Assembly (NCBI GenBank): GCA_964019425.1
Contig: OZ025796.1
Coordinates: 1,116,001-1,180,000 of the forward strand
DNA: 64,000 bases
Direction: 5' to 3'
Source: Flectonema sp. DT1601
Lineage: Eukaryota
Shown here: positions 17,877 through 64,000 of the stretch, piece by piece
Position numbering within the stretch: the first letter of the stretch is position 1
Layout of the letters: each line of letters begins with the position of its first letter
The notes under the pieces: generated by a model
Seen by the model: the letters and a program-made list of their open reading frames with translations, nothing else
Told to the model about the DNA's origin: nothing
Database searches by the model: none
Translations under genes and position numbers: made by a program

Positions 17877-17937
17877 TTTTTTTAATTTTAACGCTGCTGA
17901 GAAGAACTAGTAAAGTAAATAATACTGAGGCGATCGG

Positions 17938-19020
17938 CAGGGTGGAGGTGTTCACGATTTTTCACTTTGCTACACGAAAATTCATGATTTTTCACTTAAT
18001 TTTTTGCTGCTTTCTGGTAGTGAAATCCCGTGAAAATGTGTGAAAATGTGTGAATTCTAGTGAAAAAAGTGAGTGATATCCAGATGGTACCGTTGGTGCT
18101 GTGCAATGTCAAACCTGGACAGTTTGCCATACATGTCACTTTGACAACTAAATGGGCATCGCTTGTGCCCAGTGACCCATCACCCTTCCTGACCATCGCT
18201 TGTGGTGAGGTTCCGGACTTTGGACCGGCGCATCGCGTGTGCGGTGGGTTTAATCACTGAGGGGGCTCATTCTCGTTCGGACTGTTCTGTTCTGTAACAA
18301 CCCGACCATGATCATTCAGCAAATATGAGATGTCAATTGTGGCTGCCTCTGACATGTCACGTGCAACCTCTGCCCAAAACTGGAGAAGTTGTCGCGGAGT
18401 GCGATGCTCCGGGAGAATGAGATGAGACGTCTGAGCACACCATTCACAATACTATATTGTGCACACATGAACTCCATGATGTTGCCCATTTCCTCGTTAC
18501 TGAGAGACATCAGGTAAGCGTATGCCCGCCTGCGACGATGAGAGTACTTGATGAGGAGCTTGTTGCGCTGCAAGAATGTGAGAACCCACCTGAGGAATGG
18601 AATACCTCGAAGCGGGCATGATAACACATAGCATGCAAATGCTAAGGTTCCGAAGCGCCCATTCGTAACCTTCTCTTTAAATGGGCACGCCCTAAAAGAG
18701 ATGCGGTGCTTCTTGCGAAGCCAGTAAGCAAACGACCGATTCCCACGTATGAAGAAGCACAGCGTTACTATTGAACGGAGGAAGTCACTGAGGCCAAAGT
18801 ACTTCGCAATCCAGGAGGCAATGCAATGAACTCGGTGTGTAGGCTCCGTGATGAGGCAGATATTCACCCACTTCCACCCTTCAATTCAAAACCAACCCAC
18901 CCACCCCCTGCCGGTGTCCCGTCAGGACCTGGCACTACCTCAGCGCGGTGAACCTGATGAATGTCCTTAGTATCTGTTCTGCCAGTTGTGCGTATTACTT
19001 TATATTCTTTATTCAGGTGG
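17938..19020 (-). mobile_element. Possible degenerate DNA transposon (hAT-like) fragment
   Basis: CAGGGTGG terminus-like sequence followed by clustered TTTCAC/GTGAAA repeats in both orientations (17955-18072). ORF remnant 18316-18867 has THRVHCIA and GRFGT, weakly resembling the hAT CxxH and TRW/F regions. Confidence 0.3.
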
Positions 19021-19467
19021 GTTGAGTTGCCAGGTGAGATTTGGACTGTTAGCTTTTGGCTAAGGCCCTCCCTGAAGAGCAAGAACAAAAAAACTACTCA
19101 CACCTGAAGAAAACATACACAAAGAACACACTGTTAGCTGTGTGTGTATTTTGTGTTTGTCACAACAGGAGAGAAAAGAAAGAATGTCAAGGTTGGTCAC
19201 CTTGCCTATCAACGCACAACATTGGTGGTCTCTACTAGACCCTGAGTGATCCCACTGGATCTCTCATCGTTCATAGTACCTATGTGAAGTTATAAAATCA
19301 AAGGTAAACTATGAACTACAAATGACTTAGCCTGTTATTATAATGCCACAGGCAGGCCCTGCATTCAGCAACTATCCAGCAGTGCTTGGATGTCCTGATC
19401 TTCTTCTAAAAAAAAGAAAGAAAAACAAAACTGTAGCTGGGATCACTCAGGATCAACAGACTACCAA
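19021..19467 (-). mobile_element. Family A non-coding element, truncated copy
   Basis: Near-identical to the other A copies and begins at the shared fixed end (GTTGAGTT..CCAGGTGAG). Strand is inferred. Confidence 0.9.
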
Positions 19468-19470
19468 CCA

Positions 19471-21490
19471 GCAGCATTAAAGAAGAACCTGCCACTGCAA
19501 GTTTTATAAAAGATGGTAAAGAAATCTTCCCTGTGGAAGAAGTCAAAATCCACAAAGTAACAAAACTGAAAACGATCGAAAAGCTCACCATTGAAAGATC
19601 GTGGCTGGAGAAATGTTTTATCTGGCAAACTTGTTACGCATCGGCTCTTTCTATTCTACTTATTGCCAATGGTTCTTCCTCCCCGGCCCCTTCTGTTTTG
19701 TTAGATGAGGATGAGCTCACTGGACTCTCCTTGTCATTCTCTTCTATTTCTTCCATCTCTTTCCAGACTCCCCCACCTGAACTCATGTCAACGGGATCGC
19801 AAACACTTCTTACTGATTTTGCTATGGTGATAAGAACTCAATCTGACATGGGTTCTCAAACCCCCTTGTACAAAAAAAAAGAAGGAAAATTAAGGCTGAA
19901 ACTTTCCTTGAAATGCCAGATTTTAGAAAACGAATTAGAGCAAATGAAAGAACGAATTTTTTATGTTCTATTTTTATTTTACTTTAATGCGATGTCAGCC
20001 TCCCTCGAGAAAGACAAGCAGTTACTAAATGGATTACCTGTTGAGATCAAAGCTACCAACCAGGATCCATCCTCACTTCCTCCTGCGCCCCCTGTTTTAA
20101 TTATTGAAAAAGATAGAAAAGAATATGAACTTCTGGAAGGAGTAATTCAACGGTTAACAGCAGAACGCGATGAATCGAAGACTTCTCTTTCTGCACTAGT
20201 TCGACAATATGACTTAGTGGAAGATTACAGGAAACGTGAGCTCGCAAATCTGACTCAGAGAGCAGACCTATCGGAAATGGCGCTCTTTAATTACCATCAA
20301 AGGTTTGTTCTTCTGTCGAACGAATTGGAGACCAAATGTAATGAGGAAAGAGAAAGTAAAATAAGACTTTTCTATACTCAACAGGAGGTCGAGAGTTTGC
20401 GTGCCGCGCGTCCCCACATGACCCACTTTAGTCAACAAGTTTCCCCCCGATCCCCTATTTTGTATGAATCTGTTGCTATGATGAAGATAGCAAAGAACTA
20501 CCTCTCGCTCTTTACAACTACGAGTAGTCTTTTTACTCCTCTTATTAAACCCCTTATCCCTACCCTTAATTATATCACCCCTCTTTGTCCTCTAGCCTCA
20601 ATTCCTCCGACAATGCCGCAGAGTGAAGCTCTCGACCGCACGCCGACCAAGATTTTACGACAAGAGAGTCACGTTATCTCCGTTAAAGAGAATACACCTA
20701 TTGCGAGACAATGGTCCGAGGGTAGGATTGACTTACTCGAGAACTACTGTCGAGCAGTAGATGACTCTCTCGAAACAATCGAGAAAGCGGCAGAGCTCTC
20801 AGAACAACTTCTGGATGCCCAACTTCGCCTCTCGGAGCTGAATCACCAACGGTGTACAACTCACGCAGAGCAGCTTGAGCAATCCATGATGTTAACGGGA
20901 CTGGCGAGCGATTTAAATGCTCAACTCGCCTTGGCACGGTCTCAAATTGCGGCCCTGAAGTTCCAATTAGCTTCATGGGCAGAAGGTTTGAGTCCGCCAG
21001 ACACAGAAGAACATGAGGAAAATGAAACTCCGCCGAGAAAGTCTGAGCGTTCAACTCTGAAAAAACGAACCCCTCCATCAAGATATCGTTACAATCGAAG
21101 GAGATGTTCTGCTGATGACGTTCACGGTGACTCCACCCCCTTGTAATTCTCTTTTTCCTTACTTTCACATCACTTTGTTTATTTAGTTTTTTTAGCTTAT
21201 TTATTATTTATTGTTTGTTTTTGTTTGTATTATTTTATCGATATGTTTTATGTCCGTCAGATCATAACGTTAATCAGGTTAATTGTTAATTGTAAATGGT
21301 CTAAACCCCAATCCAAGTTCCCAAGGCTTGGCATAGATTTGAGTGACGCCTTACTGGCCTCCTCATCCTCTATGAGTGGTGAGGGGGCCAGCAATGGTTT
21401 TTTTTTTTTTTTCTCTTATTTCTTTTTCTTCTTTTTCTTTTACTCTAATATGAAATATTTTTGAACAAAATGTGATTATTAATTTAAAAA
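19471..21490 (+). mobile_element. 5'-truncated copy of the HERO-like retrotransposon (C-terminal extension ORF 19533-21146 plus 3' UTR)
   Basis: Inverted near-identical copy of ~32170-34192. The frame is intact with a few amino-acid substitutions. Confidence 0.93.
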
Positions 21491-21510
21491 GGGAAAACCC
21501 CTAATTCCAC

Positions 21511-22610
21511 GAGTTAAGTTACCAGGTGAGATTTGGACTGTTAGCTTTTGGCTAAGGCCCTCCCTGAAGAGAGTTGAATTTCCAGGTGAGATTTGGACTG
21601 TTAGCTTTTGGCTAAGGCCCTCCCTGAAGAGCAAGAACAAAAAAACTACTCACACCTGAAGAAAACATACACAAAGAACACACTGTTAGCTGTGTGTGTA
21701 TTTTGTGTTTGTCACAACAGGAGAGAAAAGAAAGAATGTCAAGGTTGGTCACCTTGCCTATCAACGCACAACATTGGTGGTCTCTACTAGACCCTGAGTG
21801 ATCCCACTGGATCTCTCATCGTTCATAGTACCTATGTGAAGTTATAAAATCAAAGGTAAACTATGAACTACAAATGACTTAGCCTGTTATTATAATGCCA
21901 CAGGCAGGCCCTGCATTCAGCAACTATCCAGCAGTGCTAGGATGTCCTGATCTTCTTCTAAAAAAAAGAAAGAAAAACAAAACTGTAGCTGGGATCACTC
22001 AGGATCAACAGACTACCAATGCTACCTGTTGTACTTGCTCACTATGGGGGGTGATGCCAAACACCCAGAAGTACTAAACTGCTTTCCTTCTTGCTGCCCA
22101 GGAGTTTCTGACCAGAACTAATAGAAAATAAAAAGTAGATGGGAAACAATAAAAAGTAAAATGGATATAACTGAAGTTAAACAAGACAAATGAAGTAACA
22201 GACCCGAACAGAAAGAGAATTGTAATAGAAGATTACAAATAAAAAAATGCAAGTATCAACACATGATCAGGATACACCAGCAGCTAACAAACAACATAAA
22301 ATTGAAGATCAGTTGCCAGAGTATTTCAACCATGGTAGAATACTCGCCCCTCTGGCAGGGATTATCCCAGACTTGTCCTTTAATTTAGTTGGACACCATG
22401 GCTTACAACCCTTCCAGAGGGAAGCACCATTATGACTTCTATTTTTTTTCTTCAAGAAAATCATAAGGTGGGAACAAAGAAAAATGCTAAGAGGAACCCC
22501 CTATTAACACCTAAGACATCTAAACTGCAGCCCAGCCTATGCCCAATGCACTAACAGGTCATTCCCTCACACTCAGATCAAAAAATCAAAGTTCAGAGTG
22601 CATCTTAGCG
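21511..22610 (-). mobile_element. Family A insertion in the MULE left TIR (solo ~60-bp terminus plus ~1040-bp copy)
   Basis: Interrupts CCAC|AAAATAG, as shown by the uninterrupted TIRs at 24660 and 43163. Confidence 0.9.
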
Positions 22611-22700
22611 AAAATAGTTTGCGAAATCGCCAACTCATCACAAAAATTTTAACCGCTCGAAACAACCCAACATGACGGGAAAATTTTCAGAATTTTCGAA

Positions 22701-25036: not shown

Positions 25037-27012
25037 TATGTCGATTACTTTCTATTTTCCGTCCTGGTCAAGACGCTAAACTGATTGTTTTTTTTTCAAA
25101 ATTAATAAAAAAGAATATAAAAAAATACAAAAAAAAGAATAAACAATGTTATCATTGTTTTTTTTTATCGTTCGACTTTGTCGACTAATTTCTATTTTCC
25201 GTTTTTTTTCTTTAAAAAATAAATAAAAAGAATTTAAAATTAAAAAAAAAAAGAATAAACAATGTTATCATTGTTTTTTTTTATCGATCGACTATGTCGA
25301 TTACTTTCTATTTTCCGTCCTGGTCAAGACGCTAAACTGATTGTTTTTTTTTTTTCAAAATAAAAAAAAATATTAAAAAAAAAGAATAAAAAAAAAGAAT
25401 AAACAATGTTATCATTGTTTTTTTTATCGTTCGACTTTGTTGACTAATTTCTATTTTCCGTTTTTTTTTTCTTTAAAAATAAATAAAAAGAATTTAAAAT
25501 AAAAAAAAAAAAAGAATAAACAATGTTATCATTGTTTTTTTATCGATCGACTATGTCGATTACTTTCTATTTTCCGTCCTGGTCAAGACGCTAAATTGAT
25601 TGTTTCTTCTAAAAATAAATTAAAAAAAAAATATAAAAAAAAAAAAAAAAAAAAAAAAAAGGAATAAACAATGTTATCATTGTTTTTATCGATCGACTTT
25701 GTCGACTAATTTCTATTTTCCGTCCTGGTCAAGACGCTAAACTGATTGTTTTTTCTAAAAATAAATAAAAAGAATAAAAAAAAAAAAAAAAAAAAAAAAA
25801 GAATAAACAATGTTATCATTGTTTTTTTATCGATCGACTATGTCGATTACTTTCTATTTTCCGTCCTGGTCAAGATGCTAAACTGATTGTTTTTTTTTTT
25901 AACCCATTAAGGACGGGGGGTCCACTACAGTGGTTATTTTGAAATTTTATTTTCGCTAAGGGGAAAACCCGGCTAACGCTACCCAGGGGGGGTGTAATCG
26001 AGGCCGTTTCGCGACGAATCTTGGGTGGGATGGCGTGGTTCGCTGTGTTTTTATTCATGAAATTCAAAACTAATAATCAAAATTTTACCACCTAACAAGA
26101 AGTTTCGTCTGCCTGTTGAAATTGATACAAGTTTGGCGTCCTATGAAAGTCTGATGATGATGGATTCTGTATCGGAGTCGTCATCTGACAGCAACACAGC
26201 AAAGGTATCAAAGTGGGGGGGCAAAACCAAGAGAATCCCCAGGGAAAAACGGAAAGGACCTACCCAGAGTGTGAGCGACTTTAATGAAATGAGCGAATTG
26301 AAGGCATCCAACTCATTTTCACTGATCATGTGCTTAAAATGATATTTCGACACACTCTTGCCTACCCGATTGACAAAGAGACGTCCATGAAGTCACTAGA
26401 AGTTGGTGAACTGAAATGCTTTCTCCGTAATTTCCACACTGCTAACAAACACATTCCTGCTTCTTATGTTCATAGTCTTGTTAAACCCCATAATAATAAA
26501 GGGCATTGGGTGACGTTTGACAATTTCAATTCGTCATACGCATTTCTTGTTTTGATGTTGGCGAAAGGGTTCCACTGTGTTGGAACAGCCTGACGGAACA
26601 GAAAGGGAGTTCTGTTGATGTTACAAAACCGAAGGCTACCCCTGGACCGGGACGACTAAGCAAATCGGAAGTGAAAGAAAGACCGAAGAATCTTTCTGCT
26701 TCTTACCTTCAGTCAAGCACGGCATCCACCATATAAAGTGGAGAGACTCAAAGGATGTGCATCTTTTCAGTACTCTTCCCTTACGTGAGCACTGTGTCGA
26801 TGTATATCGCTGGATTAGGAGAATTTCGATAAAGTGGGAAGTAACGGACTGGGAGCTTTTGGCTCCTGCCCTATTCCCGATGTAAACTTTCTTTTTATTT
26901 TTATTTTTTTTAACAGGCCCAAAGGGCGACAATGATGGTTGCTGACCAAGGAATAATATTCAAATGAATTTTCGTTTCAAAGAAACGAACAGAATTAAGA
27001 GAGAGGCAGAGG

Positions 27013-27044
<32 letters not shown>

Positions 27045-35500: not shown

Positions 35501-37645
35501 ATGGATCATTAAACTCCATGTTAACCTTGACAATAACAAGTGTTGGACAGACCAAGCCTTCTGAGACCCATATAGTGGCATGGCGTCGACTTTTTTTAAA
35601 AAATTCCTGGTAAAAGTGGTCAGGCGCTCTCGCAATTTCTGTTCTTTGGCGTTCGGCTCAAACCAACGCCCGAGGTATTTGAACTCTCCAGCTTCCTGGA
35701 GATTCGTAATCGGAACATTGTTAATCTTCAGGTCCGGGTTAGCTGGTTTCCCTTGTACAAAGCTGTGGGCAATGCATTTCTGGGGTTTCGCTTTCATACC
35801 ACGAGACCAGGAAAGAAACTGTTCGAGCGACTTGATTAGCAATTTTGCCCCCGCCTTTGATGACGTGGTAAGTTGTAAATCATCAGCAAAAGCTGCAACT
35901 AATAGTTGGAGGGATTTATTGTTAAACTCGTAGGCTTCCTGTTGATGAACTGCTAAGGAAAAGAGCAGTAGTTGGAATACCAAATTAAAAAGGGTTGGGG
36001 AGGAAACGCAGCCTTGAAAGACACCAACTTCAAAAGGGATAGTGGGCGTCAGGCCTTCTCCAACTCTGATTTGGACGCGCATGGAGGAATAATACCTTTT
36101 ATAGAAACCGATTATTCTTTCGTGAATTCCGAAATATTTTAAAGCAAAGAAAATTAATTGATGTTTGACTGAGCCGAAAGCATCTGCCAAATCCACCCAG
36201 ACAATTGTTAGGTTTTTCCGGAGAGCTTTCACTTCTTTAAAAATCTCTGAGGTGATCGTGGCATGTTCGATACACCCAGAGACACCTTTCCTAAAGCCTT
36301 TTTGAAAATTAAATTTAGAAAGAGTGTGGTTTGCGACGGCTTCCTGAATAACCGTATTAAAAATTTTCCCGTCGCAGTTGCCCACAGCTATCGGTCTCGT
36401 TTTCGAGATGTCTTTCCCATCGGAGTTGGGCTTTGGGAGCATTGTTACAAATGCTAAGCCCCAACTATCCGGATAGGCCTTGAGTTCGAAAATTCTCTTT
36501 AATACCTTGTAAAGTGCTTCCATAAAAGTTGGGACCTTTTTCCATACAACATAAGGTATGCAATTGGGACCAGGGGCACATTTGTTTTTTTTCTTTGATA
36601 AGAGAATACCAAACTGTTCGAAGCTCGGGAACTGGATATCATCCATTGTCTTGTAGTCAGACTTAGGTAAAAAAGAGGGATGGGTGAAATCAGTTTTTTT
36701 TTTTTCATTGTCACAATAATTGTTTTTAAAATGTTCAATTATTTTTTCCTCTGGAATATCAAGGGAGGGGGGTTGAGGATCTTCTTTTTGGAGTTCTTCT
36801 TTTATGGCAGTAAACGGATTTTGACGAAATTTATCTTGTAATTTTTTGAATAAATTTTTCTTTTCTAAATTCCGATACATTCGGAAAATCCTTTTCATTC
36901 TCGTTCTTGCCTCTTTCCATTTGACAGCGTTCTCTATAGAAGGCCCAGATTTGCGGAGCTCCTGTCTTAGCTGTTTCATTTCCAGACGACATTCAAGTTT
37001 TTCTTGGTCGAGGATGACCTCTTCCCTTGATTTCTGTTTGCGGGGTAAATTCCGCTTTGTTTCTTCAAAGAAACCGCTACATATTTGATAAACCGTTTTG
37101 AGTAGTTTATCAAGTTGGTCGGCAGGTTTTGAAGAGTTTTCTGTTTCGACGGAGAAAGTTTGAAGTTTTTCTGCAGCAGAAACGTCGATGTCCTTCCATT
37201 CAGTTCCAAAAGATCGGAATTTGAGACGAGACGGGTGTAACGGGGTAAAAGTGGGTGTTGTAGAGTTATAAGGAACGAAAGCTGTTTGTGAAGTTTTAAA
37301 ATCTACAGATTCTCCTACAAAGGGAGGTTCCAGGTCTGAATTATTCCCTGTGAGGGGAGACAGAGGTGTACCTTTACATGTACCGTTAACACAGTGTTTC
37401 GCTCTCGTAGCGATACTTTTGAAAAGCTTACCACAATCTGGACAAGGTAAGTGGTAACAATCTTTAACTTGGGAGTGGGTAGATGGGGGAAAACGTGACT
37501 TATAGTCCTTAAATTCCTTACTAAACTTACAGTTACGTCTAAAATGCGCAACTGGACCTTTGAGGTATGTCTCAAAACATAAAGGACATTTGGCTACTAA
37601 AGTTTTATCCCCATCCAGAGCCGATCTCGAAATAGCCTCTTGCAA
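32519..37645 (-). CDS. RLE-type non-LTR retrotransposon polyprotein, HERO-like (zinc fingers, RT, CCHC knuckle, restriction-like endonuclease, long C-terminal extension)
   Basis: N-terminal CPLC..H...C and CPDCGKLF...H. RT motifs APGPNCIPY, RPIAV, QKGF, WVDLADAFGSV, GVFQGCVSSP, FADD and FKYLG. CVLC..HVLTGC, QGRFTWRHDSVL and RPDIFIYS...ILELTCP. Uninterrupted 1708 codons; the true start is uncertain (TTG). Confidence 0.95.
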   Translation of the reverse strand: MQEAISRSALDGDKTLVAKCPLCFETYLKGPVAHFRRNCKFSKEFKDYKSRFPPSTHSQVKDCYHLPCPDCGKLFKSIATRAKHCVNGTCKGTPLSPLTGNNSDLEPPFVGESVDFKTSQTAFVPYNSTTPTFTPLHPSRLKFRSFGTEWKDIDVSAAEKLQTFSVETENSSKPADQLDKLLKTVYQICSGFFEETKRNLPRKQKSREEVILDQEKLECRLEMKQLRQELRKSGPSIENAVKWKEARTRMKRIFRMYRNLEKKNLFKKLQDKFRQNPFTAIKEELQKEDPQPPSLDIPEEKIIEHFKNNYCDNEKKKTDFTHPSFLPKSDYKTMDDIQFPSFEQFGILLSKKKNKCAPGPNCIPYVVWKKVPTFMEALYKVLKRIFELKAYPDSWGLAFVTMLPKPNSDGKDISKTRPIAVGNCDGKIFNTVIQEAVANHTLSKFNFQKGFRKGVSGCIEHATITSEIFKEVKALRKNLTIVWVDLADAFGSVKHQLIFFALKYFGIHERIIGFYKRYYSSMRVQIRVGEGLTPTIPFEVGVFQGCVSSPTLFNLVFQLLLFSLAVHQQEAYEFNNKSLQLLVAAFADDLQLTTSSKAGAKLLIKSLEQFLSWSRGMKAKPQKCIAHSFVQGKPANPDLKINNVPITNLQEAGEFKYLGRWFEPNAKEQKLRERLTTFTRNFLKKVDAMPLYGSQKAWSVQHLLLSRLTWSLMIHDLSLPFAKKMDKIIKPFLKKWWGFVRSANTVILFTGSKNTVGLRHKRVETLYKQAQSIKLDILRSSQDSDMHGVYNVIMEKSSNWSKKFSASAEWERLIKFFSYRSLAKQSAGLGHRLRDLRTTRPDLLKRFEVEATDELLNSLNKLQVQGQWKEWSKCMINDFTWNKVLREGNPAYISFQLKAVTNTLPSQDNLKRWNITNVDQNCVLCGKVNPTLRHVLTGCPVSLTQGRFTWRHDSVLKRIVIFLEELIIKANKRKENLPPPSQTFLKTGENKPLERISKETGELSLANDWVILDDVGDNRLIVPLEVCHVSSSLRPDIFIYSFFAKRALILELTCPNEDRFETSHVLKEKKYLKLRDSIIANGFDCNIFTIEVGVRGNICMDQLNIWTRHIGSPLAPTKALFCECTRIARQCSYVLFQTRNLPTWHSRPLMRSIKEEPATASFIKDGKEIFPVEEVKIHKVTKLKTIEKLTIERSWLEKCFIWQTCYASALSILLIANGSSSPAPSVLLDEDELTGLSLSFSSISSISFQTPPPELMSTGSQTLPADFAIVIRTQSDMGSQTPLYKKKEGKLRLKLSLKCQILENELEQMKERIFYVLFLFYFNAMSASLEKDKQLLNGLPVEIKATNQDPSSLPPAPPVLIIEKDRKEYELLEGVIQRLTAERDESKTSLSALVRQYDLVEDYRKRELANLTQRADLSELALFNYHQRFVLLSNELETKCNEERESKIRLFYTQQEVESLRAARPRMTHFSQQVSPRTPVLYESVAMMKIAKNYLSLFTTTSSLFTPLIKPLIPTLNYITPLCPLASIPPTMPQSEALDRTPTKILRQESHVISVKENTPIARQWSEGRIDLLENYCRAVDDSLETNEKAAELSEQLLDAQLRLSELNHQRCTTHAEQLEQSMMLTGLASDLNAQLALARSQIAALKFQLASWAEGLSPPDTEEHEENETPPRKSERSTLKKRTPPSRYRYNRRRCSADDVHGDSTPL

Positions 37646-38456
37646 AGCCTCGGGGGCTGGGTTGGCTGAGAGATGGTTGCCAGTATCTTTATGACACCGC
37701 CGGCCCGGTGTTTCTTTTTTTTTTTGTTGTGAAGTAGCAATAATAAGAAAAAAAAAAAAAAATAGAAAAGAGAATGGCTCAGAAACAATATCGATGAGTT
37801 AAGATCTTTTTTTTTAAACTATTCCTTTTTTTTTTAATTTCGGGCAGCTAACCCTAGAGTTTTTTTTTGGTAAATACTGTTTAAAGGAAAACGAGCTACG
37901 CTCTAAAACAGAAAAATCGGAGTAACTACTTGTTTATAATATATATTTTGATAAATAATGTGGTTGGCAAATGAATGCCGAAGAGGCAACTTGAGAAAAG
38001 CAATTGGATGAGAAGAAACATTGGGTCTTATAAAGCAAAGGAGATAGAGGGGCCTAAAAAGACCGCAGAGTGGATAGCTCGCAGAGTGGATTAGGAAGAG
38101 AAATAAAAAAGAAAAAGTGCCGATCAAACTACCGTGCAAGTAGACAGGTACACCAAAACGATGGGAGGTGTTAACCTGATGGATAGCGTGAAGGGAAGGC
38201 GAACAGAAACCTTCAAACTAAACGATGGCATCTAAAGGTTTTCGACTACTTGCTGAAAGTTTCAATGTTCAACACGTTTACCCTTCAAAAGAAATGCAGT
38301 AAGGATACTGGTACCTACACACGGTATGTAGAGGAGCTCGCTATGCAACTCGTCAGTGACGGGACGTCGAGAGACAAGACAACCAATACTACATCTACTA
38401 TTGACTCGGGTTCGCACTTTTCACACATGTTCAGCACCACTGAGCACTATCCATCG

Positions 38457-39915
38457 GAGTTGAGTTTACCAGGTGAGATTTGGACTGTTAGCTTTTGGCT
38501 AAGGCCCTCCCTGAAGAGCAAGAACAAAAAAACTACTCACACCTGAAGAAAACATACACAAAGAACACACTGTAAGCTGTGTGTGTATTTTGTGTTTGTC
38601 ACAACAGGAGAGAAAAGAAAGAATGTCAAGGTTGGTCACCTTGCCTATCAACGCACAACATTGGTGGTCTCTACTAGACCCTGAGTGATCCCACTGGATC
38701 TCTCATCGTTCATAGTACCCTGTGTGAAGTTATAAAATCAAAGGTAAACTATGAACTACAAATGACTTAGCCTGTTATTATAATGCCACAGGCAGGCCCT
38801 GCATTCAGCAACTATCCAGCAGTGCTAGGATGTCCTGATCTTCTTCTAAAAAAAAGAAAGAAAAACAAAACTGTAGCTGGGATCACTCAGGATCAACAGA
38901 CTACCAATGCTACCTGTTGTACTTGCTCACTATGGGGGGTGATGCCAAACACCCAGAAGTACTTAACTACTTTCCTTCTTGCTGCCCAGGAGTTTCTGAC
39001 CAGAACTAATAGAAAATAAAAAGTAGATGGGAAATAATAAAAAGTAAAATGAATATAACTGAAGTTAAACAAGACAAATGAGGTAACAGACCAGAACAGA
39101 TAGAGAATAAAAATAAAAGATATAGGCAAGAATGATTGTAGTGAAAGATTACAAATAAAAAAAATGCAAGATCAACACATGATCAAGATACACCAGCAGC
39201 TAACAAACAACATAAAATTGAAGATCAGTTGCCAGAGTATTTCAACCATGGTAGAATACTCGCCCCTCTGGCAGGGATTATCCCAGACTTGTCCTTTAAT
39301 CTAGTTGGACACCATGGCTTACAACCCTTCCAGAGGGAAGCACCATTATGACTTCTATTTTTTTTCTTCAAGAAAATCATAAGGTGGGAACAAAGAAAAA
39401 TGCTAAGAGGAACCCCTTATTAACACCTAAGACATCTAAACTGCAGCCCAGCTTATGCCCAATGCACTAACAGGTCATTCCCTCACACTCAGATCAAAAA
39501 ATCAAAGTTCAGAGTGCATCTTAGCGTGAATGAGAGAATTTCCTCCCGCTTTTTTTGAACAAAAGGGATAGGAGAAGGGATAGAAAACGAACATAACAAT
39601 AAGATTCTAAGTGAGGAACACTTAGCAGAAATACTTAGCAGCTTTTAAGGAGCTGAAAAGCAAAAAAAAAATCTAAGTGAGAAACACTTAGTAGAAACAC
39701 TTTGTAGCTAATTGAGCTGAAAATAAAAAAATAAAAAAATTTCTAAGTGAGAGATACTTAGCAACTTTTAGAACAAATATTTCAGTAAATAACCTGTTGA
39801 AATGGTAGTTAATGTAACCATTACAGGTTTGATGCCAATACTGACAAAGACTGAGTTGAGTTTACCAGGTGAGATTTGGACTGTTAGCTTTTGGCTAAGG
39901 CCCTCCCTGAAGAGC
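38457..39915 (-). mobile_element. Full-unit family A element (1396 bp plus 63-bp terminal direct repeat)
   Basis: 38457-38519 is repeated at 39853-39915. It is inserted in the piggyBac ORF between HYPSE and the Cys-rich domain. Confidence 0.92.
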
Positions 39916-40444
39916 TGCGATATTTGGCGCTGCTAAACAATGTAAGTATCACAATACTCGAGTGAGGACTACTTATGGATGCCAGGGGTGTAAGGTTTTT
40001 ATGTGTCCTGCACCCTGTTTTGGCAAATACCACTTAAATCTTACAAAGGGGAGAACATTTGCGTCCCATACCACCACCTCTGTGTCGGGAGGTGCTATCC
40101 GGGAAGAATGTACGAAGGGGAAGACCCCTGCACTCACAACAACATCAAAATTGAAGAGGCGCAGGGAGTCATAAGAACTGAGCTTATTTTTGTCTTTGGT
40201 GGTGTTTTCATTTGTTCTGTTCACCCTTTAGGTGGTGAATGTGTGTGTATTTTTAACGGGCAGGCAATGGCGGTTCACTTTGTCACATCACCTTTCCGAG
40301 CCCCCCTACCCCTTTTCCCCGTTAGCTCTTTTTTCAAAAAAAGTCAAAAAACCGGGTTTTACCCCCGTCCGTAATGGGTTAAAAAATAAATAAAAAGAAT
40401 TTAAAAAAAAAAAAAAAAAAAAAAAGAATAAACGAAAAAAAAAA

Positions 40445-40844
40445 AATTTCGATAAAGTGGGAAGTAACGGACTGGGAGCTTTTGGCTCCTGCCCTATTCC
40501 CGATGTAAACTTTCTTTTTATTTTTTTTTTTTTTTTTAACAGGCCCAAAGGGCGACAATGATGGTTGCTGACCAAGGAATAATATTCAAATGAATTTTCG
40601 TTTCAAAGAAACGAACAGAATTAAGAGAGAGGTAGAGAAAAAAAAAAAAAAAAAAAAGAAAGAATAGAAAAAAAATATGAAGAGGAAATAATCAAACATG
40701 AAAAAAAAAAGAAAAAAAAAATATAAATAAAAAACGTTGTATGAAAAAGGAAAAAAAAGAAAAAAAAAAAAAAAAGACCAGAAAAGGAAAGAGAAAATGA
40801 AAAGGTATAATATTATTGTGGGGATATGAGGATAGCAGGGAGAT

Positions 40845-40879
<35 letters not shown>

Positions 40880-42630
40880 TTATTATTTAAAAAAAGGAAA
40901 CAATCAGTTTAGCGTCTCGATCAGGACGGAAAATAGAAATTAATCGACATAGTCGATCGATAGAAAAAAAAACAATGATAACATTGTTTATTCCTTTTTT
41001 TTTTTTTTTTTTTTTATTCTTTTTATTTATTTTTAAAGAAAAAACAATCAGTTTAGCGTCTTGACCAGGACGGAAAATAGAAAGTGATCGACATAGTCGA
41101 TCGATAAAAAGACAATGATAACATTGTTTATTCTTTTTTTTTTTTTTTTTTTAAATTCTTTTTATTTATTTTTAAAGAAAAAAAAACGGAAAATAAAAAT
41201 TAGTCGACAAAGTCGAACGATAAAAAAAAACAATGATAAGAGTTGAATTTCCAGGTGAGATTTGGACTGTTAGCTTTTGGCTAAGGCCCTCCCTGAAGAG
41301 CAAGAACAAAAAAACTACTCACACCTGAAGAAAACATACACAAAGAACACACTGTAAGCTGTGTGTGTATTTTGTGTTTGTCACAACAGGAGAGAAAAGA
41401 AAGAATGTCAAGGTTGGTCACCTTGCCTATCAACGCACAACATTGGTGGTCTCTACTAGACCCTGAGTGATCCCACTGGATCTCTCATCGTTCATAGTAC
41501 CCTGTGTGAAGTTATAAAATCAAAGGTAAACTATGAACTACAAATGACTTAGCCTGTTATTATAATGCCACAGGCAGGCCCTGCATTCAGCAACTATCCA
41601 GCAGTGCTTGGATGTCCTGATCTTCTTCTAAAAAAAAGAAAGAAAAACAAAACTGTAGCTGGGATCACTCAGGATCAACAGACTACCAATGCTACCTGTT
41701 GTACTTGCTCACTATGGGGGGTGATGCCAAACACCCAGAAGTACTAAACTACTTTCCTTCTTGCTGCCCAGGAGTTTCTGACCAGAACTAATAGAAAATA
41801 AAAAGTAGATGGGAAACAATAAAAAGTAAAATGGATATAACTGAAGTTAAACAAGACAAATGAAGTAACAGACCAGAACAGAAAGAGAATTGTAATAGAA
41901 GATTACAAATAAGAAAATGCAAGTATCAACACATAATCAAGATACACCAGCAGCTAACAAACAACATAAAATTGAAGATCAGTTGCCAGAGTATTTCAAC
42001 CATGGTAGAATACTCGCCCCTCTGGCAGGGATTATCCCAGACTTGTCCTTTAATTTAGTTGGACACCATGGTTGTTTATTCTTTTTTTTTTTTGTTTTTT
42101 TTTATATTCTTTTTTATTAATTTTGAAAAAAAAACAATCAGTTTAGCGTCTTGACCAGGACGGAAAATAGAAAGTGATCGACATAGTCGATCGATAAAAA
42201 GACAATGATAACATTGTTTATTCTTTTTTTTTTTTTTTTTTTAAATTCTTTTTATTTATTTTTAAAGAAAAAAAAACGGAAAATAAAAATTAGTCGACAA
42301 AGTCGAACGATAAAAAAAAAACAATGATAACATTGTTTATTCTTTTTTTTTTTGTTTTTTTTTATATTCTTTTTTATTAATTTTGAAAAAAAAACAATCA
42401 GTTTAGCGTCTTGACCAGGACGGAAAATAGAAAGTAATCGACATAGTCGATCGATAAAAAAAAAACAATGATAACATTGTTTACTCTTTTTTTTTTTTTT
42501 TTTTAAATTCTTTTTATTTTAAAAAGAAAAAAAACGGAAAATAGAAATTAGTCAACAAAGTCGAACGATAAAAAAAAAACAATGATAACATTGTTTATTC
42601 TTTTTTTTTTATTTTTTTATATTCTTTTAT
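40445..42630 (-). mobile_element. Family D copy (fixed terminus plus satellite B), containing an A insertion
   Basis: Starts with the same AATTTCGATAAAGTGGGAAG end as 26822. Confidence 0.85.
41240..42071 (-). mobile_element. Family A truncated copy inserted in satellite B
   Basis: Interrupts CAATGATAA|(CA)TTGTTTATTC and has the same fixed end. Confidence 0.9.
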
Positions 42631-43162
42631 GTTATCATTGTTTTTTTATCGATCGACTATGTCGATCACTTTCTATTTTCCGTCCTGGTCAAGACGCTAA
42701 ACTGATTGTTTTTTTTTTTCAAAATTAATAAAAAAGAATATAAAAAAATACAAAAAAAAGAATAAACAATGTTATCATTGTTTTTTTTATCGATCGACTA
42801 TGTCGATTACTTTCTATTTTCCGTCCTGGTCAAGACGCTAAACTGATTGTTTTTTTTTCAAAATAAAAAAAAATATTAAAAAAAAAAAATAAAAAAAAAG
42901 AATAAACAATGTTATCATTGTTTTTTTTTATCGTTCGACTTTGTTGACTAATTTCTATTTTCCGTTTTTTTTTCTTTAAAAAATAAATAAAAAGAATTTA
43001 AAAAAAAAAAAAAAAAAAAGAATAAACAATGTTATCATTGTTTTTTTTATCGATCGACTATGTCGATTACTTTCTATTTTCCGTCCTGGTCAAGACGCTA
43101 AACTGATTGTTTTTTTTTCAAAATAAAAAAAAATATTAAAAAAAAAAAATAAAAAAAAAGAA
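42631..43162. repeat. Satellite B in the opposite orientation (inversion junction at ~42630)
   Basis: The motif orientation flips. The sequence resembles 24390-24659. Confidence 0.9.
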
Positions 43163-43800: not shown

Positions 43801-45087
43801 TCCGAAAGACTCCTGTTGTGCTTGTTCTTGCCAATCTGAAGAGGGTCGGTGGTCCTGCGTTGATGTGGTAGCCATTGGAAGCCCGTGTGCCTCTGGAATA
43901 TGTTGTACGTTATCAGTAGGGCAACATTCACGCCACTGGTTCCATCAGTTGACTAAGAACTATCAACAACACTGAATAACCTCCCCATCCCTTGAGGGGT
44001 GCAGGATGACAACGAACACAACGGTTGTTAGCTTCATCCCACGAGCACGACGGTACCAGAGGAAGTATCATGCTGCAGCGATGTGACGGAGGGTGAGGAG
44101 GAAGCTGCTGCTTCAAGAAGTCAGGTCACCGACAGATCACCTGTGAATCCATCAACAAGCCGGACTGTCCTTCGAGATATAATTGGTGACTTCGACCCGC
44201 TTCCCTTCTGTCTGTGCACCTGCGACAGCTTCAACTATGTCACTCACTCAGGACTTAGTTAGATCTCTCTGCGCCGATCCCTTCTTGCCGCAATATCTGC
44301 AGTGTAGTTAAGACTCCAAGACTCTAGGAGTATATCCCCCTTGTTTGGGTACAGTTGCAAGCGGATGTGTCTTCCGTACTTCTTTGTATGCCGCATGTAC
44401 TGGAGTGTCTTGTATGCCCTGCTGGTGAGTATGGTTGGGTCTTGAGTGATGCCTTGAACGGCTTTTTGGACGGGGCATGTTGCCCTATGTCGCTGTTGCT
44501 ATCTATGGCACTGCTATTTGAGGCACTACCACTACAGCTGTCTTCAGGCTTATCCCTGTTTGGGGTACAGACGTGGCGCTTTGTCTATTCTGTGAGCCTT
44601 CTGTGACCACGATTCAGATACTGGACGTTTTTGGACCCCTTTCTCACGCGTATCTTGCTTCTGACTGTCCAAGTGCTGTTGAGTGACTTCAGGGATGTCT
44701 CGGGAGGTGTTTTCATGCACTCCGGGATCAATGCTCTCCTCCGCAGAATGACTTTGTGAGCTGCCCTGCAGAACGTTGTTTTCCGCTGCGATATCCTCCG
44801 GTTTATCAAATATGTAGCGGTTTCTTTGAAGAAACAAAGCGGAATTTACCCCGCAAACAGAAATCAAGGGAAGAGGTCATCCTCGACCAAGAAAAACTTG
44901 AATGTCGTCTGGAAATGAAACAGCTAAGACAGGAGCTCCGCAAATCTGGGCCTTCTATAGAGAACGCTGTCAAATGGAAAGAGGCAAGAACGAGAATGAA
45001 AAGGATTTTCCGAATGTATCGGAATTTAGAAAAGAAAAATTTATTCAAAAAATTACAAGATAAATTTCGTCAAAATCCGTTTACTGC

Positions 45088-46247
45088 GTTGAATTTCCAG
45101 GTGAGATTTGGACTGTTAGCTTTTGGCTAAGGCCCTCCCTGAAGAGCAAGAACAAAAAAACTACTCACACCTGAAGAAAACATACACAAAGAACACACTG
45201 TTAGCTGTGTGTGTATTTTGTGTTTGTCACAACAGGAGAGAAAAGAAAGAATGTCAAGGTTGGTCACCTTGCCTATCAACGCACAACATTGGTGGTCTCT
45301 ACTAGACCCTGAGTGATCCCACTGGATCTCTCATCGTTCATAGTACCTATGTGAAGTTATAAAATCAAAGGTAAACTATGAACTACAAATGACTTAGCCT
45401 GTTATTATAATGCCACAGGCAGGCCCTGCATTCAGCAACTATCCAGCAGTGCTAGGATGTCCTGATCTTCTTCTAAAAAAAAGAAAGAAAAACAAAACTG
45501 TAGCTGGGATCACTCAGGATCAACAGACTACCAATGCTACCTGTTGTACTTGCTCACTATGGGGGGTGATGCCAAACACCCAGAAGTACTAAACTGCTTT
45601 CCTTCTTGCTGCCCAGGAGTTTCTGACCAGAACTAATAGAAAATAAAAAGTAGATGGGAAACAATAAAAAGTAAAATGGATATAACTGAAGTTAAACAAG
45701 ACAAATGAAGTAACAGACCCGAACAGAAAGAGAATTGTAATAGAAGATTACAAATAAAAAAATGCAAGTATCAACACATGATCAGGATACACCAGCAGCT
45801 AACAAACAACATAAAATTGAAGATCAGTTGCCAGAGTATTTCAACCATGGTAGAATACTCGCCCCTCTGGCAGGGATTATCCCAGACTTGTCCTTTAATT
45901 TAGTTGGACACCATGGCTTACAACCCTTCCAGAGGGAAGCACCATTATGACTTCTATTTTTTTTCTTCAAGAAAATCATAAGGTGGGAACAAAGAAAAAT
46001 GCTAAGAGGAACCCCCTATTAACACCTAAGACATCTAAACTGCAGCCCAGCCTATGCCCAATGCACTAACAGGTCATTCCCTCACACTCAGATCAAAAAA
46101 TCAAAGTTCAGAGTGCATCTTAGCGTGAATGAGAGAATTTCCTCCCGCTTATTTTGAACAAAAGGGATAGGAGAAGGGATAGAAAACGAACATAAAAATA
46201 AAATTCTAAGTGAGAAACACTTAGCAGAAACACTTAGCAGCTTTTAA
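45088..46247 (-). mobile_element. Family A insertion with an 11-bp TSD
   Basis: CCGTTTACTGC occurs at 45077-45087 and 46248-46258 but is single-copy at this site in the intact element. Confidence 0.93.
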
Positions 46248-47027
46248 CCGTTTACTGCCATAAAAGAAGAACTCCAAAAAGAAGATCCTCAACCCCCCTC
46301 CCTTGATATTCCAGAGGAAAAAATAATTGAACATTTTAAAAACAATTATTGTGACAATGAAAAAAAAAAAACTGATTTCACCCATCCCTCTTTTTTACCT
46401 AAGTCTGACTACAAGACAATGGATGATATCCAGTTCCCGAGCTTCGAACAGTTTGGTATTCTCTTATCAAAGAAAAAAAACAAATGTGCCCCTGGTCCCA
46501 ATTGCATACCTTATGTTGTATGGAAAAAGGTCCCAACTTTTATGGAAGCACTTTACAAGGTATTAAAGAGAATTTTCGAACTCAAGGCCTATCCGGATAG
46601 TTGGGGCTTAGCATTTGTAACAATGCTCCCAAAGCCCAACTCCGATGGGAAAGACATCTCGAAAACGAGACCGATAGCTGTGGGCAACTGCGACGGGAAA
46701 ATTTTTAATACGGTTATTCAGGAAGCCGTCGCAAACCACACTCTTTCTAAATTTAATTTTCAAAAAGGCTTTAGGAAAGGTGTCTCTGGGTGTATCGAAC
46801 ATGCCACGATCACCTCAGAGATTTTTAAAGAAGTGAAAGCTCTCCGGAAAAACCTAACAATTGTCTGGGTGGATTTGGCAGATGCTTTCGGCTCAGTCAA
46901 ACATCAATTAATTTTCTTTGCTTTAAAATATTTCGGAATTCACGAAAGAATAATCGGTTTCTATAAAAGGTATTATTCCTCCATGCGCGTCCAAATCAGA
47001 GTTGGAGAAGGCCTGACGCCCACTATC

Positions 47028-47664
47028 ACTCATTGTTTTTTTTTTTTATTGTTCGACTTTGTTGACTAATTTCTATTTTCCGTTTTTTTTTTTTCTTTTT
47101 AAAAAATAAATAAAAAGAATTTAAAAAAAAAAAAAAAAAAAAGAATAAACAATGTTATCATTGTTTTTTTTTTCATCGATCGACTATGTCGATTACTTTC
47201 TATTTTCCGTCCTGGTCAAGACGCTAAACTGATTGTTTTTTTTCAAAATTAATAAAAAAGAATATAAAAAAAAAACAAAAACAAAAAGAATAAACAATGC
47301 TATCATTGTTTTTTTTTTATCGTTCGACTTTGTCGACTAATTTTTATTTTCCGTTTTTTTTTCTTTAAAAATAAATAAAAAGAAATTAAAAAAAAAAAAA
47401 AAAAAAAAGAATAAACAATGTTATCATTGTTTTTTTAGCGATCGACTATGTCGATCACTTTCTATTTTCCGTCCTGGTCAAGAAGCTAAACTGATTGTTT
47501 TTTCTTTAAAATAATAAAAAGGATTAAAAAAAAAAAAAAAAAAAAAAAAAAGAATAAACAATGTTATCATTGTTTTTTATCGATCGACTATGTCGATCAC
47601 TTTCTATTTTCCGTCCTGGTCAAGACGCTAAACTGATTGTTTTTTCTTTAAAAAATAATTAAAA

Positions 47665-47702
<38 letters not shown>

Positions 47703-47960
47703 TTAATCAATGTTATCATTGTTTTTTTTATCGATCGACTATGTCGATCACTTTCAATTTTCCGTCCTGGTCAGGACGCTAAACTGATTGTTTTTTCTTT
47801 AAAAATAAATGAAAAGAACAAAAAAAAAAAAAAAAAAAAAAGGAATAAACAATGTTATCATTGTTTTTTTTTTATCGATCGACTATGTCGATTACTTTCT
47901 ATTTTCCGTCCTGGTCAAGACGCTAAACTGATTGTTTTTTCTTTAAAATAATTAAAAGGG

Positions 47961-47991
<31 letters not shown>

Positions 47992-48512
47992 ATAAACAAT
48001 GTTATCATTGTTTTTTTTCTATCGATCGACTATGTCGATTAATTTCTATTTTCCGTCCTGATCGAGACGCTAAACTGATTGTTTCCTTTTTTTAAATAAT
48101 AAAAAAAAAAAAAAAAGAGCATCTCCCTGCTATCCTCATATCCCCACAATAATATTATACCTTTTCATTTTCTCTTTCCTTTTCTGGTCTTTTTTTTTCT
48201 TTTTTTCCTTTTTCATACAACGTTTTTTATTTATATATTTTTTTTTTTTTTTTTTTCATGTTTGATTATTTCCTCTTCATATTTTTTTTTTTCTATTCTT
48301 TCTTTTTTTTTTTTTTTTTTCTCTGCCTCTCTCTCAATTCTGTTCGTTTCTTTGAAACGAAAATTCATTTGAATATTATTCCTTGGTCAGCAACCATCAT
48401 TGTCGCCCTTTGGGCCTGTTAAAAAAAAAAATAAAAATAAAAAGAAAGTTTACATCGGGAATAGGGCAGGAGCCAAAAGCTCCCAGTCCGTTACTTCCCA
48501 CTTATCGAAATT
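47028..48512 (+). mobile_element. Family D insertion (satellite B plus fixed terminus) inside the RT domain
   Basis: Interrupts CCCACTATC|CCTTTTGAAG without a duplication and ends ...TTACTTCCCACTTATCGAAATT. Confidence 0.9.
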
Positions 48513-49890
48513 CCTTTTGAAGTTGGTGTCTTTCAAGGCTGCGTTTCCTCCCCAACCCTTTTTAATTTGGTATTCCAACTACTGCTCTTTTCCTTAGCAG
48601 TTCATCAACAGGAAGCCTACGAGTTTAACAATAAATCCCTCCAACTATTAGTTGCAGCTTTTGCTGATGATTTACAACTTACCACGTCATCAAAGGCGGG
48701 GGCAAAATTGCTAATCAAGTCGCTCGAACAGTTTCTTTCCTGGTCTCGTGGTATGAAAGCGAAACCCCAGAAATGCATTGCCCACAGCTTTGTACAAGGG
48801 AAACCAGCTAACCCGGACCTGAAGATTAACAATGTTCCGATTACGAATCTCCAGGAAGCTGGAGAGTTCAAATACCTCGGGCGTTGGTTTGAGCCGAACG
48901 CCAAAGAACAGAAATTGCGAGAGCGCCTGACCACTTTTACCAGGAATTTTTTAAAAAAAGTCGACGCCATGCCACTATATGGGTCTCAGAAGGCTTGGTC
49001 TGTCCAACACTTGTTATTGTCAAGGTTAACATGGAGTTTAATGATCCATGACTTATCTCTCCCTTTTGCCAAAAAAATGGACAAAATTATTAAACCTTTT
49101 TTGAAGAAATGGTGGGGATTTGTCCGCTCTGCGAACACAGTCATCCTTTTTACCGGTTCAAAGAACACTGTTGGTCTCAGACACAAAAGAGTTGAGACGC
49201 TATATAAACAAGCGCAATCAATTAAACTAGACATCCTCAGATCCTCACAGGACTCTGACATGCACGGTGTCTACAATGTTATTATGGAGAAATCGTCCAA
49301 CTGGTCGAAAAAGTTTTCAGCTTCTGCTGAGTGGGAGCGCCTTATTAAGTTTTTTTCTTACCGTTCTCTTGCGAAGCAATCAGCTGGTCTTGGTCACCGA
49401 TTGCGCGATCTACGTACTACTCGCCCCGATCTCCTTAAGCGTTTTGAAGTGGAAGCCACAGATGAACTACTGAACTCTTTGAATAAATTACAAGTCCAAG
49501 GTCAGTGGAAGGAGTGGTCTAAATGTATGATAAACGACTTCACCTGGAATAAGGTACTTAGGGAGGGAAATCCTGCCTATATCTCATTTCAACTGAAAGC
49601 GGTTACAAACACCCTCCCCTCACAAGATAATTTAAAGAGGTGGAACATCACCAATGTGGACCAAAATTGTGTTTTGTGTGGCAAAGTGAATCCTACCCTC
49701 AGGCATGTCTTAACAGGCTGTCCTGTCTCTTTAACACAAGGGAGGTTCACGTGGCGTCACGACAGCGTTCTAAAACGCATTGTTATCTTCTTGGAAGAGT
49801 TGATAATAAAAGCCAACAAAAGAAAAGAAAACCTCCCGCCTCCCTCTCAAACTTTTTTAAAAACAGGGGAAAATAAACCCCTAGAAAGAA

Positions 49891-49921
49891 TGATTGTTTT
49901 TTCTTTAAAACAATTAAAAAG

Positions 49922-49956
<35 letters not shown>

Positions 49957-50228
49957 AATAAACAATGTTATCATTGTTTTTTTTCTATCGATCAACTATG
50001 TCGATTAATTTCTATTTTCCGTCCTGATCGAGACGCTAAACTGATTGTTTCCTTTTTTTAAATAATAAATAAGAAAAAAAAAAAAAAAAAAAAAGAGCAT
50101 CTCCCTGCTATCCCTCATATCCCCACAATAATATTATACCTTTTCATTTTCTCTTTCCTTTTCTGGTCTTTTTTTTTTTCTTTTTTTTCCTTTTTCATAC
50201 AACGTTTTTTATTTATATATATATATAT
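49891..50228 (+). repeat. Partial family D segment
   Basis: Matches ~47925-48235 and ends in a (TA)n run. Confidence 0.8.
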
Positions 50229-63600: not shown

Positions 63601-64000
63601 AAGCTGGGCTGCAGTTTAGATGTCTTAGGTGTTAATAAGGGGTTCCTCTTAGCATTTTTCTTTGTTACCACCTTATGATTTTCTTGAAGAAAAAAAATAG
63701 AAGTCATAATGGTGCTTCCCTCTGGAAGGGTTGTAAGCCATGGTGTCCAACTAAATTAAAGGACAAGTCTGGGATAATCCCTGCCAGAGGGGCGAGTATT
63801 CTACCATGGTTGAAATACTCTGGCAACTGATCTTCAATTTTATGTTGTTTGTTAGCTGCTGGTGTATCTCGATCATGTGTTGATACTTGCATTTTTTTTT
63901 TTATTTGTAATCTTTTACTACAATAACTCTTGCAATTATCTTTTCTTTTTTATTCTCTATCTGTTCTGGTCTGTTTCTTCATTTTTTTACATTAATAATT
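51652..64000 (+). repeat. Head-to-tail tandem array of a 1540-bp unit (family A plus ~140-bp insert), 8 units, running to the window edge
   Basis: ORF track entries recur every 1540 bp (51859, 53399, 54939 ... 62639), and the units are nearly identical. Confidence 0.98.

Follow-up and report, generated by a model that had tools for sequence, protein, structure and literature searches.

Where does a retrotransposon end when its coding frame is followed by several kilobases of satellite DNA? The question is raised by a 64,000-nt stretch of the genome of Flectonema sp. DT1601 (assembly GCA_964019425.1, contig OZ025796.1, positions 1,116,001 to 1,180,000), here called the window and numbered from its first letter, in which a block of 11,266 bp interrupts a degenerate piggyBac-like transposon (Table 1). 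The block carries a long open reading frame (ORF) on the minus strand, followed by an array that we call satellite B and by a terminal segment, D, with a stem-loop. A preliminary description had taken it for one retrotransposon that extends beyond its apparent poly(A) and spreads satellite DNA. This interpretation is partly supported, its main inference largely so. The sequence makes it fairly probable that the block is a single HERO-like element whose RNA runs through satellite B to D, with a second repeat, A, as a likely further template of its enzyme. The stronger finding, overlooked at first, is a stem-loop common to A and D, by which A is tied to this reverse transcriptase (RT).

Insertion site and coding capacity of the element

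The block is bracketed by the 10-mer TGGATTAGGA, which occurs exactly twice in the window, once at each border; its chance recurrence within 500 bp of the opposite junction is about 7e-4. Four public runs (X1-X4) were compared with positions 25903-27010, where X1 covers only D and X3 nothing. In two of the four (X2 and X4, from different studies), contigs pass from 26820 directly to 38097 onward and contain one copy of TGGATTAGGA, the second half of the X2 contig matching 38087-38283. This is the empty piggyBac allele that the preliminary description suggested looking for, and its single 10-mer shows that the direct repeat noticed there is a true target duplication, whatever the share of microhomology at the 5' joint. 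Such microhomology, raised early as a caveat, is possible, as five bases of the right copy fit a local repeat, GCAGAGTGGAT, with occurrences at 38065 and 38081. Excision of the block was also said to restore piggyBac coding. This holds over a short distance: the frame crosses the junction (...VDVYRWIR, then KRNKKEKVPIKLP...) and 14 codons further meets an unrelated frameshift into VDRYTKTMGGVNLMDS. The target is otherwise broken, with a DDE_Tnp_1_7 match (8.5e-9) in one left fragment among seven scanned; this domain, the TTAA target and the CCC-starting inverted ends (TTAA+CCCATT repeats) identify it as a piggyBac.

The ORF has no ATG ahead of about residue 277, and the 1708 residues first assigned to this long single frame, which spans 1759 codons from stop to stop, would require a non-ATG start. 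Such starts are common among R2-type ORFs. Near the N-terminus, two Cys/His clusters recognized by eye (Pfam zf-C2H2_4 at no better than E 0.32) precede an RT domain at residues 455-710 (RVT_1, 3.6e-26), a zf-RVT/CCHC region at 928-993 (zf-RVT, 3.1e-6) and the endonuclease motifs RHD, RPD and ELT, which are invariant, in the order RHD..PD..ELT, in an alignment of the ORF with 15 relatives. RT, CCHC and restriction-like endonuclease (RLE) within one ORF, a fixed 3' end, variable 5' truncation and no terminal repeats are the marks of an RLE-type retrotransposon of the non-LTR (long terminal repeat) class. The closest solved structures (PDB) are R2 proteins (E 1e-69); the target, a piggyBac and not the R2 site of 28S rDNA, places the element outside the R2 clade proper. 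By eye, its RT motifs (APGPN.IPY.VWK, GCIEHA, W.DLADAFG and KAW..Q..L.RL.W.LM..D) are closer to the HERO rows than to the Utopia, NeSL, R5 or R4 rows of the alignment in the supplement of PMC7650587. HERO elements are mostly non-specific in target (PMC4640811; a search of its ten supplements for HERO gave no hit), and in the window insertions hit piggyBac, RT, satellite and terminal-inverted-repeat (TIR) sequence, with no consensus by eye in the 3' flanks of eight junctions. The block is accordingly best classed as a HERO-like non-LTR retrotransposon, a placement drawn from motifs read by eye and from untargeted insertion.

Behind the RLE follows an orphan C-terminal extension of about 550 residues. 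Among the relatives' loci (63 of 80 scorable), the post-RLE part has a median of 5 residues and stays below 150 in 62, exceeding that length in one. Searches for homologs outside the element's own family found none: three matches in one search and 18 among 1.84e9 proteins all belong to the family, whose clusters of 1, 47 and 14 members lie on long ENA contigs. The best Atlas match (0.89) is under the lead threshold, the best Pfam match reaches only E 0.059, and no relatives were found in viral contigs. The second subfamily (P0056-P0071, compared with 32522-34201) is identical through RT and RLE and diverges from about residue 1390, falling to ~50-60% identity with in-frame indels, a pattern that suggests exchange of a 3' module. 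Divergence with the frame kept suggests in turn a functional, probably helical domain. Between copy 2 and the main copy the extension differs by six synonymous and eight non-synonymous codon changes (leaving aside the first three junction codons), too few for a selection test. One outside protein, P0106, may represent a third extension type; the relative L070 has an extension of 372 residues, and P0032, P0034, P0038, P0040, P0041, P0043 and P0045 contain a ubiquitin carboxyl-terminal hydrolase (UCH) domain, in P0032 after the RLE.

Table 1. Window coordinates of the element, its parts and related insertions
Feature	Coordinates	Strand	Remarks
Whole inserted element, 11,266 bp	26821..38086	-	
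Left copy of 10-bp target duplication TGGATTAGGA	26811..26820	+	single copy in X2 and X4 empty alleles
Right copy of 10-bp target duplication TGGATTAGGA	38087..38096	+	first 5 bases also match GCAGAGTGGAT repeat
Degenerate piggyBac-like transposon (target)	25903..40378	+	TTAA-flanked; sits inside satellite B array
5' region upstream of open frame	37799..38086	-	
Single ORF, 1759 codons stop to stop	32519..37798	-	two N-terminal Cys/His clusters, RT, zf-RVT/CCHC, endonuclease motifs, C-terminal extension
Orphan C-terminal extension, ~550 aa	32522..34186	-	predicted helical/coiled-coil; two subfamilies, ~50-66% identity
Strong hairpin ~210 nt after stop	32269..32306	-	z -4.3; unrelated to D
Internal A-rich tract ('poly(A)')	32121..32174	-	
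Two ~236-bp repeats ('240-bp repeats')	31571..32026	-	
Linker	30946..31570	-	three segments 81-95% like repeat A; 17-bp minisatellite; missing from copy 2
Satellite B, 3.7 kb	27231..30945	-	28 subunits, mostly ~140+~120-bp dimers, monomers beside D
D end	26821..27230	-	stem-loop 26878-26836; core GGGC..AGC-CAAAA-GCT..CAGTCC; terminus GAAATTC 25 nt after core
Copy 2, 5'-truncated at extension start	19462..24659	+	98% identical; via poly(A) and 240-bp repeats into satellite B; no D end seen
Copy 3, holding A and D insertions	44799..50224	+	RT region 99.9% identical; joins same-sense one satellite unit and part of D
5'-truncated satellite B-D insertion	47028..48513	+	1-bp target deletion
5'-truncated satellite B-D insertion	40434..42628	-	~1-bp target deletion; end GAAA-T-run-C; contains A insertion
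A insertion head to head with 5' end of copy 2	19018..19461	-	
A insertion with 61-bp stem-loop piece joined at 3' end	21511..22610	-	1-bp target deletion
A insertion in piggyBac, just over one unit	38457..39919	-	stem-loop at both ends; empty allele in X2, no duplication
A insertion	41240..42071	-	2-bp target deletion
5'-truncated A insertion	45088..46247	-	11-bp duplication (45077-45087, 46248-46258)
Tandem array of 1540-bp repeat A, head to tail	51652..64000	+	D-type stem-loop in each unit

The 3' region and the stem-loop shared with repeat A

The 3' region of the element measures 5.7 kb, includes satellite B (slightly longer than the ~3.6 kb first given) and ends 25 nt past the D stem-loop. 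Of the window copies, two extend as far as the A-rich tract, and each goes on through the 240-bp repeats to satellite B, in the same sense. One X1 contig (1771 nt) spans 31930-33689 unbranched, so the poly(A) is internal there as well; contigs of X2, X3 and X4 end within 30 letters of 32268, inside a skipped A/T run, and are uninformative. In the linker, X1 has no cover of 31299-31612, a gap that proves nothing. The extension beyond the poly(A) proposed in the preliminary description is thereby supported. Its account of copy 2, then placed at 19471, needs qualification: the flank and the same-sense satellite B are there, but only across a 2.3-kb TIR element (21491-23771, with the 9-bp duplication ATTTAAAAA) that splits the poly(A), and without the ~690-bp linker stretch corresponding to 30946-31636. 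The satellite B of this copy resumes at 25037-25898, 40383-40433 and 42629-43162.

All three complete D ends of the window (26821, 40434 and 48513) stop at GAAA-T(n)-C, with differing flanks. Beyond it, we surveyed 52 family proteins from outside that were mapped to the window (30 + 22), whose contigs may belong to the window's own assembly. Ten of them contain 11 D-end junctions, every flank being different; read by eye from the translations, eight lie at GAAATT(C), two within about 3 nt and one about 6 nt short. The D contig of X2 ends at 26823, fitting a branch point. The D-bearing pieces measure ~57-85 nt, 1.4 kb (40434-42628 less its A insert), 1.5 kb and up to 11.3 kb. Window and outside junctions thus agree on a fixed D end with variable 5' ends, as first proposed, and satellite B is found travelling with D, the D-proximal variant subunit being common to all four D-linked copies. 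The D insertion originally given as 47028-48512 is present; it runs to 48513 and made a 1-bp target deletion rather than a duplication. Contig depth rises from the 5' ORF toward D in X1, X2 and X4; depth is not copy number.

Repeat A, of which seven full array units differ at one position, has the same end as D: the core GGGC..AGC-CAAAA-GCT..CAGTCC stands 24-25 nt before the terminus, with 17 specified bases in common and equal spacing. All nine core pairs are kept in nine sequences, and two of them are changed on both sides between A and D. The dispersed copies of A (at 19018, 21511, 38457, 41240 and 45088) likewise have one fixed and one variable end, and four segments of A match the element's 3' region at 78-95%. 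A is tandem in X1 and X4 as well, and an RT copy in X2 has a further A joined into it. Seven junctions have a readable target: duplications mark two of them (the main element with 10 bp, the A insertion at 45088 with 11 bp); the remaining five show a blunt joint or the loss of 1-2 bp. Both footprint types occur in both families, A and D, without a common target sequence. The shared stem-loop and these footprints together make it likely that one RT spreads two satellites, A and B-D.

With a 3' tail shared with an autonomous long interspersed element (LINE) and no ORF of at least 150 residues in its array, A resembles a partner of the short interspersed element (SINE) or SIDE kind. It is no strict SINE, having neither a tRNA gene nor an Rfam match, and no SIDE, as self-comparison shows no match to the 5' region 37799-38086 and A matches only the 3' region. 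Rfam gave no match at the gathering score, and with the threshold relaxed it placed no ribozyme in the leader, in A or in D. A likeness over 12 bases between the reverse strand of the loop and U2 snRNA was given no weight.

Several details of A and its surroundings may be added. An array variant at 53194-53343 contains a ~140-190-bp piece like the element's 3' region, reversed, which is missing from the dispersed copies, and a shorter tandem variant occurs in X1 and X4. The 5' end of A at CCATGG (42071; about 52958 in the array) recurs within ~1-2 nt in P0062 and P0105 beside different neighbours and may mark a site where the RNA preferentially begins or the RT preferentially stops; another favoured end is found about 62 nt from the terminus (21571, 39915). 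An unlinked block of satellite B (50759-51642) runs into the A array without a change of sense. The D of copy 3 breaks off at a run of TA, after which comes CAGT (50225-50758), possibly a Tc1/mariner-like end.

Proposed mechanism and competing readings

We propose a route in which the element RNA would run 5.7 kb past the stop codon, through the poly(A) and satellite B, to D. The protein would bind the D stem-loop and start target-primed reverse transcription (TPRT) 25 nt downstream, at DNA nicked by its endonuclease without a fixed target sequence. R2 binds its own 3' untranslated region (UTR) to start TPRT (PMC3414825) and tolerates a short 3' tail (PMC13580325). Copying may begin at a fixed distance from the stem-loop even with sequence beyond it, as in the A arrays; because repeat A has its signal within tandem units, either copying must begin internally or the RNA is cleaved at that point. 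Complete copying would yield the 11.3-kb insertion, and early stops would leave 5'-truncated pieces of ~60 bp to several kb, thereby dropping satellite B at new sites. Variable second-strand cutting would account for duplications of 10-11 bp or deletions of 0-2 bp, and template jumps for the stem-loop doublet at 21511 and for head-to-head joints; the 61-bp doublet, like the insertion of slightly more than one unit at 38457, is consistent with jumps and multimeric templates. A retrotransposon with such a shared end is a likely route, judged from its junctions, by which satellite DNA reaches new places.

Head-to-head joints of opposed inserts, A with RT and A with D, occur at 19458-19465 and in P0105 and P0085; among these cases is also a short piece of RT enclosed by two D ends that face each other. 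Two cDNAs may have been primed at a single break, or one insertion may be nested in another.

Tentatively, and with somewhat less than even confidence, the proposal may be carried further: satellite and retroposon would be two states of one element, the A units and the B end both carrying a docking stem-loop for a HERO-type RT. Array transcripts would be copied from internal starts, jumping or multimer copying would build arrays, the extension and the 3' tails would be swapped as modules from one subfamily to another, and A would come from the tail of the second subfamily. The A array of more than 12 kb, in the same sense behind satellite B, may then itself be such an insertion.

A number of observations weigh against the proposed route. 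Only the main copy offers an unbroken path from ORF to D: copy 2 shows no D and lacks the linker, and copy 3 jumps from 34659 to 27433. Upstream of the D-proximal subunit, the order of satellite subunits differs among the D-linked copies, which points to different donors or to arrays that have turned over. In X1, D is joined to one 33-letter flank at a contig depth of 25.6, unexpected for unique insertions; this flank does not occur in the window, and its constancy and depth indicate a repeated donor context for D. Four of the ten proteins with D junctions were found by searching with D itself, and protein junctions are blind to copies ending at the poly(A), that region being non-coding. The strong hairpin unrelated to D lies near where the relatives' contigs often end (median 548 nt beyond the stop, a weak proxy). 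The covariation amounts to one event between two sequence types, and 274 of 500 shuffles reach its two-pair count; the fold of repeat A alone is unremarkable (z -1.4, against -3.4 for D). The stem-loop model scores nothing above 12 bits in the 80 relatives' loci, and a pattern search of metagenome contigs returned nothing.

Part of this evidence would be explained if B-D were a separate non-autonomous, SINE/SIDE-like family with its own donors. The 11.3-kb unit would then be an RT-jump chimera, or one chimeric master among several, and most D insertions would not derive from ORF-bearing RNA. The constant deep flank in X1 and the differing subunit order fit this arrangement, as do the ORF-side joints, which differ among the main copy, copy 2 and copy 3, the same-sense RT-to-D joints in P0060, P0090 and P0099, the derivation of A itself from tandem donors, and the template jumps of R2 known in vivo (PMC3414825). 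Yet two independent copies place same-sense satellite B behind the same 240-bp repeats, all four D-linked copies have the D-proximal variant subunit, and a stringent RT normally needs the signal on its own RNA (R2/R1, PMC3414825). Moreover, a hairpin in one satellite B subunit shares 20 of 24 bases with a linker segment (a score attained by 2 of 200 shuffles; one of eight comparisons made), a weak sign that satellite B arose within this 3' UTR; comparison of satellite B with the 240-bp unit, the D body and the whole A unit showed no likeness above shuffles. We therefore regard a separate B-D family as unlikely on the whole. One component of the preliminary description is nevertheless less secure, namely that the short D insertions are truncated products of the ORF-bearing RNA: subunit order and the X1 flank make non-autonomous donors possible.

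Quite improbable, in our view, is a functional end at the ORF-proximal hairpin or the poly(A) (32170-32306), with the tail a 3' transduction from one source locus and D moved by another element. The hairpin itself (z -4.3), the short tails of relatives, in mostly short contigs, and the X2, X3 and X4 contigs that stop near 32268, though inside the skipped A/T run, would agree with such an end. Neither of the two window copies ends there, however, and the X1 contig is unbranched; D ends are fixed to the base and tied to a conserved structure, unlike transductions, and no other RT is seen in the window. The hairpin is a candidate for an older 3' signal.

Hardly credible is a DNA route for A and B-D, by Helitron/Helentron-like rolling circles or by repeat recombination, with the RT merely adjacent. 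Subterminal hairpin, tandem arrays and five of seven junctions without duplication do resemble rolling-circle elements. Helitrons and Helentrons make no target duplication and use a constant target dinucleotide; here duplications of 10 and 11 bp occur, in both families, targets vary with no constant dinucleotide, the hairpin end is fixed while the far end varies, and the RT ORF lies inside the duplicated boundaries.

Related systems and neighbouring features

Each ingredient of the proposed element has a precedent. HERO elements (HERO-1_BF, HERO-1_SP, HEROTn) likewise combine RT, CCHC and RLE in one ORF and have no fixed target; the element of the window differs from them in its ~550-residue post-RLE extension, where some other relatives carry a UCH peptidase, and in a 5.7-kb satellite-bearing 3' region that ends in a stem-loop and not in a poly(A) or microsatellite tail. 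The SIDEs of R2, together with R2/R1 hybrid SIDEs, are also non-autonomous, keep a 3' RNA structure by compensatory changes and undergo template jumps in vivo, but represent short internal deletions that are specific to rDNA and begin with a 5' ribozyme (PMC3414825), unlike repeat A with its 1.5-kb unit, long head-to-tail array, unrelated sites and no known ribozyme detected. The telomeric MoTeR/FoTeR elements share the RLE type, tandem repeats and many truncated copies; they are telomere-specific elements of 4.3-7.3 kb with repeats of at most ~1.4 kb, mostly 5', and FoTeR 3' UTRs measure 336-409 bp (PMC12857005). In Ogre/PisTR-A, an LTR element, and in HeT-A/TART 18HT, tandem repeats of the 3' non-coding region are linked to satellite DNA; those reports (PMC9659126) treat the origin of arrays, not satellite dispersal as 5'-truncated insertions with one fixed end. 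The W-elements of Schistosoma mansoni consist of tandem units resembling a satellite, also occur as scattered complete or incomplete copies and have been proposed to be mobile; the available part of PMC8490949 links them to no mobilizing enzyme through a common end, and several have hammerhead ribozymes. Our literature search, to which Repbase Reports and most subscription journals were external, found no HERO element with a satellite-bearing tail or tandem partner. Nor did it find an RLE element with a multi-kb satellite upstream of its 3' signal or a macrosatellite partner sharing that signal, though those sources and preprint supplements, equally outside the search, may hold cases.

The seeding of new loci by satellites is usually inferred from sequence likeness only. 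The junctions described here name a likely enzyme, an RNA signal of ~45 nt and polymorphic empty sites, which makes the route testable with one protein and two short RNAs. If the proposal is true, an RLE-type RT is able to copy a homopolymer-rich RNA 11 kb long and needs no fixed target to do so; this matters for gene insertion tools of the R2 type (PMC13580325). An annotation that ended the element at its first poly(A) would lose half of it and label its products plain satellite.

The TIR element inside copy 2 has GGG-starting inverted ends of ~47 bp beside its 9-bp duplication, and we take it to be Mutator-like. It carries a divergent 28S rRNA fragment (23139-23534) with the R2 target site intact and uninterrupted, and a tRNA-like stretch near 22702-22775 that is not called by ARAGORN; its left end is found again at 24660 and 43163, in each case at the same position within satellite B. 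In Diplonema, R2-like ORFs, MULEs and scattered 28S pieces have been described (PMC10161547). A small inverted-repeat element at 24738-25032 (CAACTGG...CCAGTTG ends) has 16-bp internal repeats, and P0099 shows, by eye, similar sequence after a D piece.

In P0057, P0091 and P0100, RT sequence adjoins a stretch that resembles 17925-18460; this stretch has the look of a further mobile element, one of whose ends recurs near 17925. Within it, just downstream of an ORF at 18316-18885 for which an Atlas search gave no lead, a Twister-ribozyme-like match lies on the minus strand at 18173-18256 (31 bits, E 0.006, under the gathering score). Further to the left, at 3436-17906, runs a series of host ORFs, all on the minus strand and apparently free of introns, which together with the divergent 28S piece may point to a protist: ankyrin-like, Era-like GTPase, UNC-93/MFS and a coiled-coil protein with a weak HNH_2 match.

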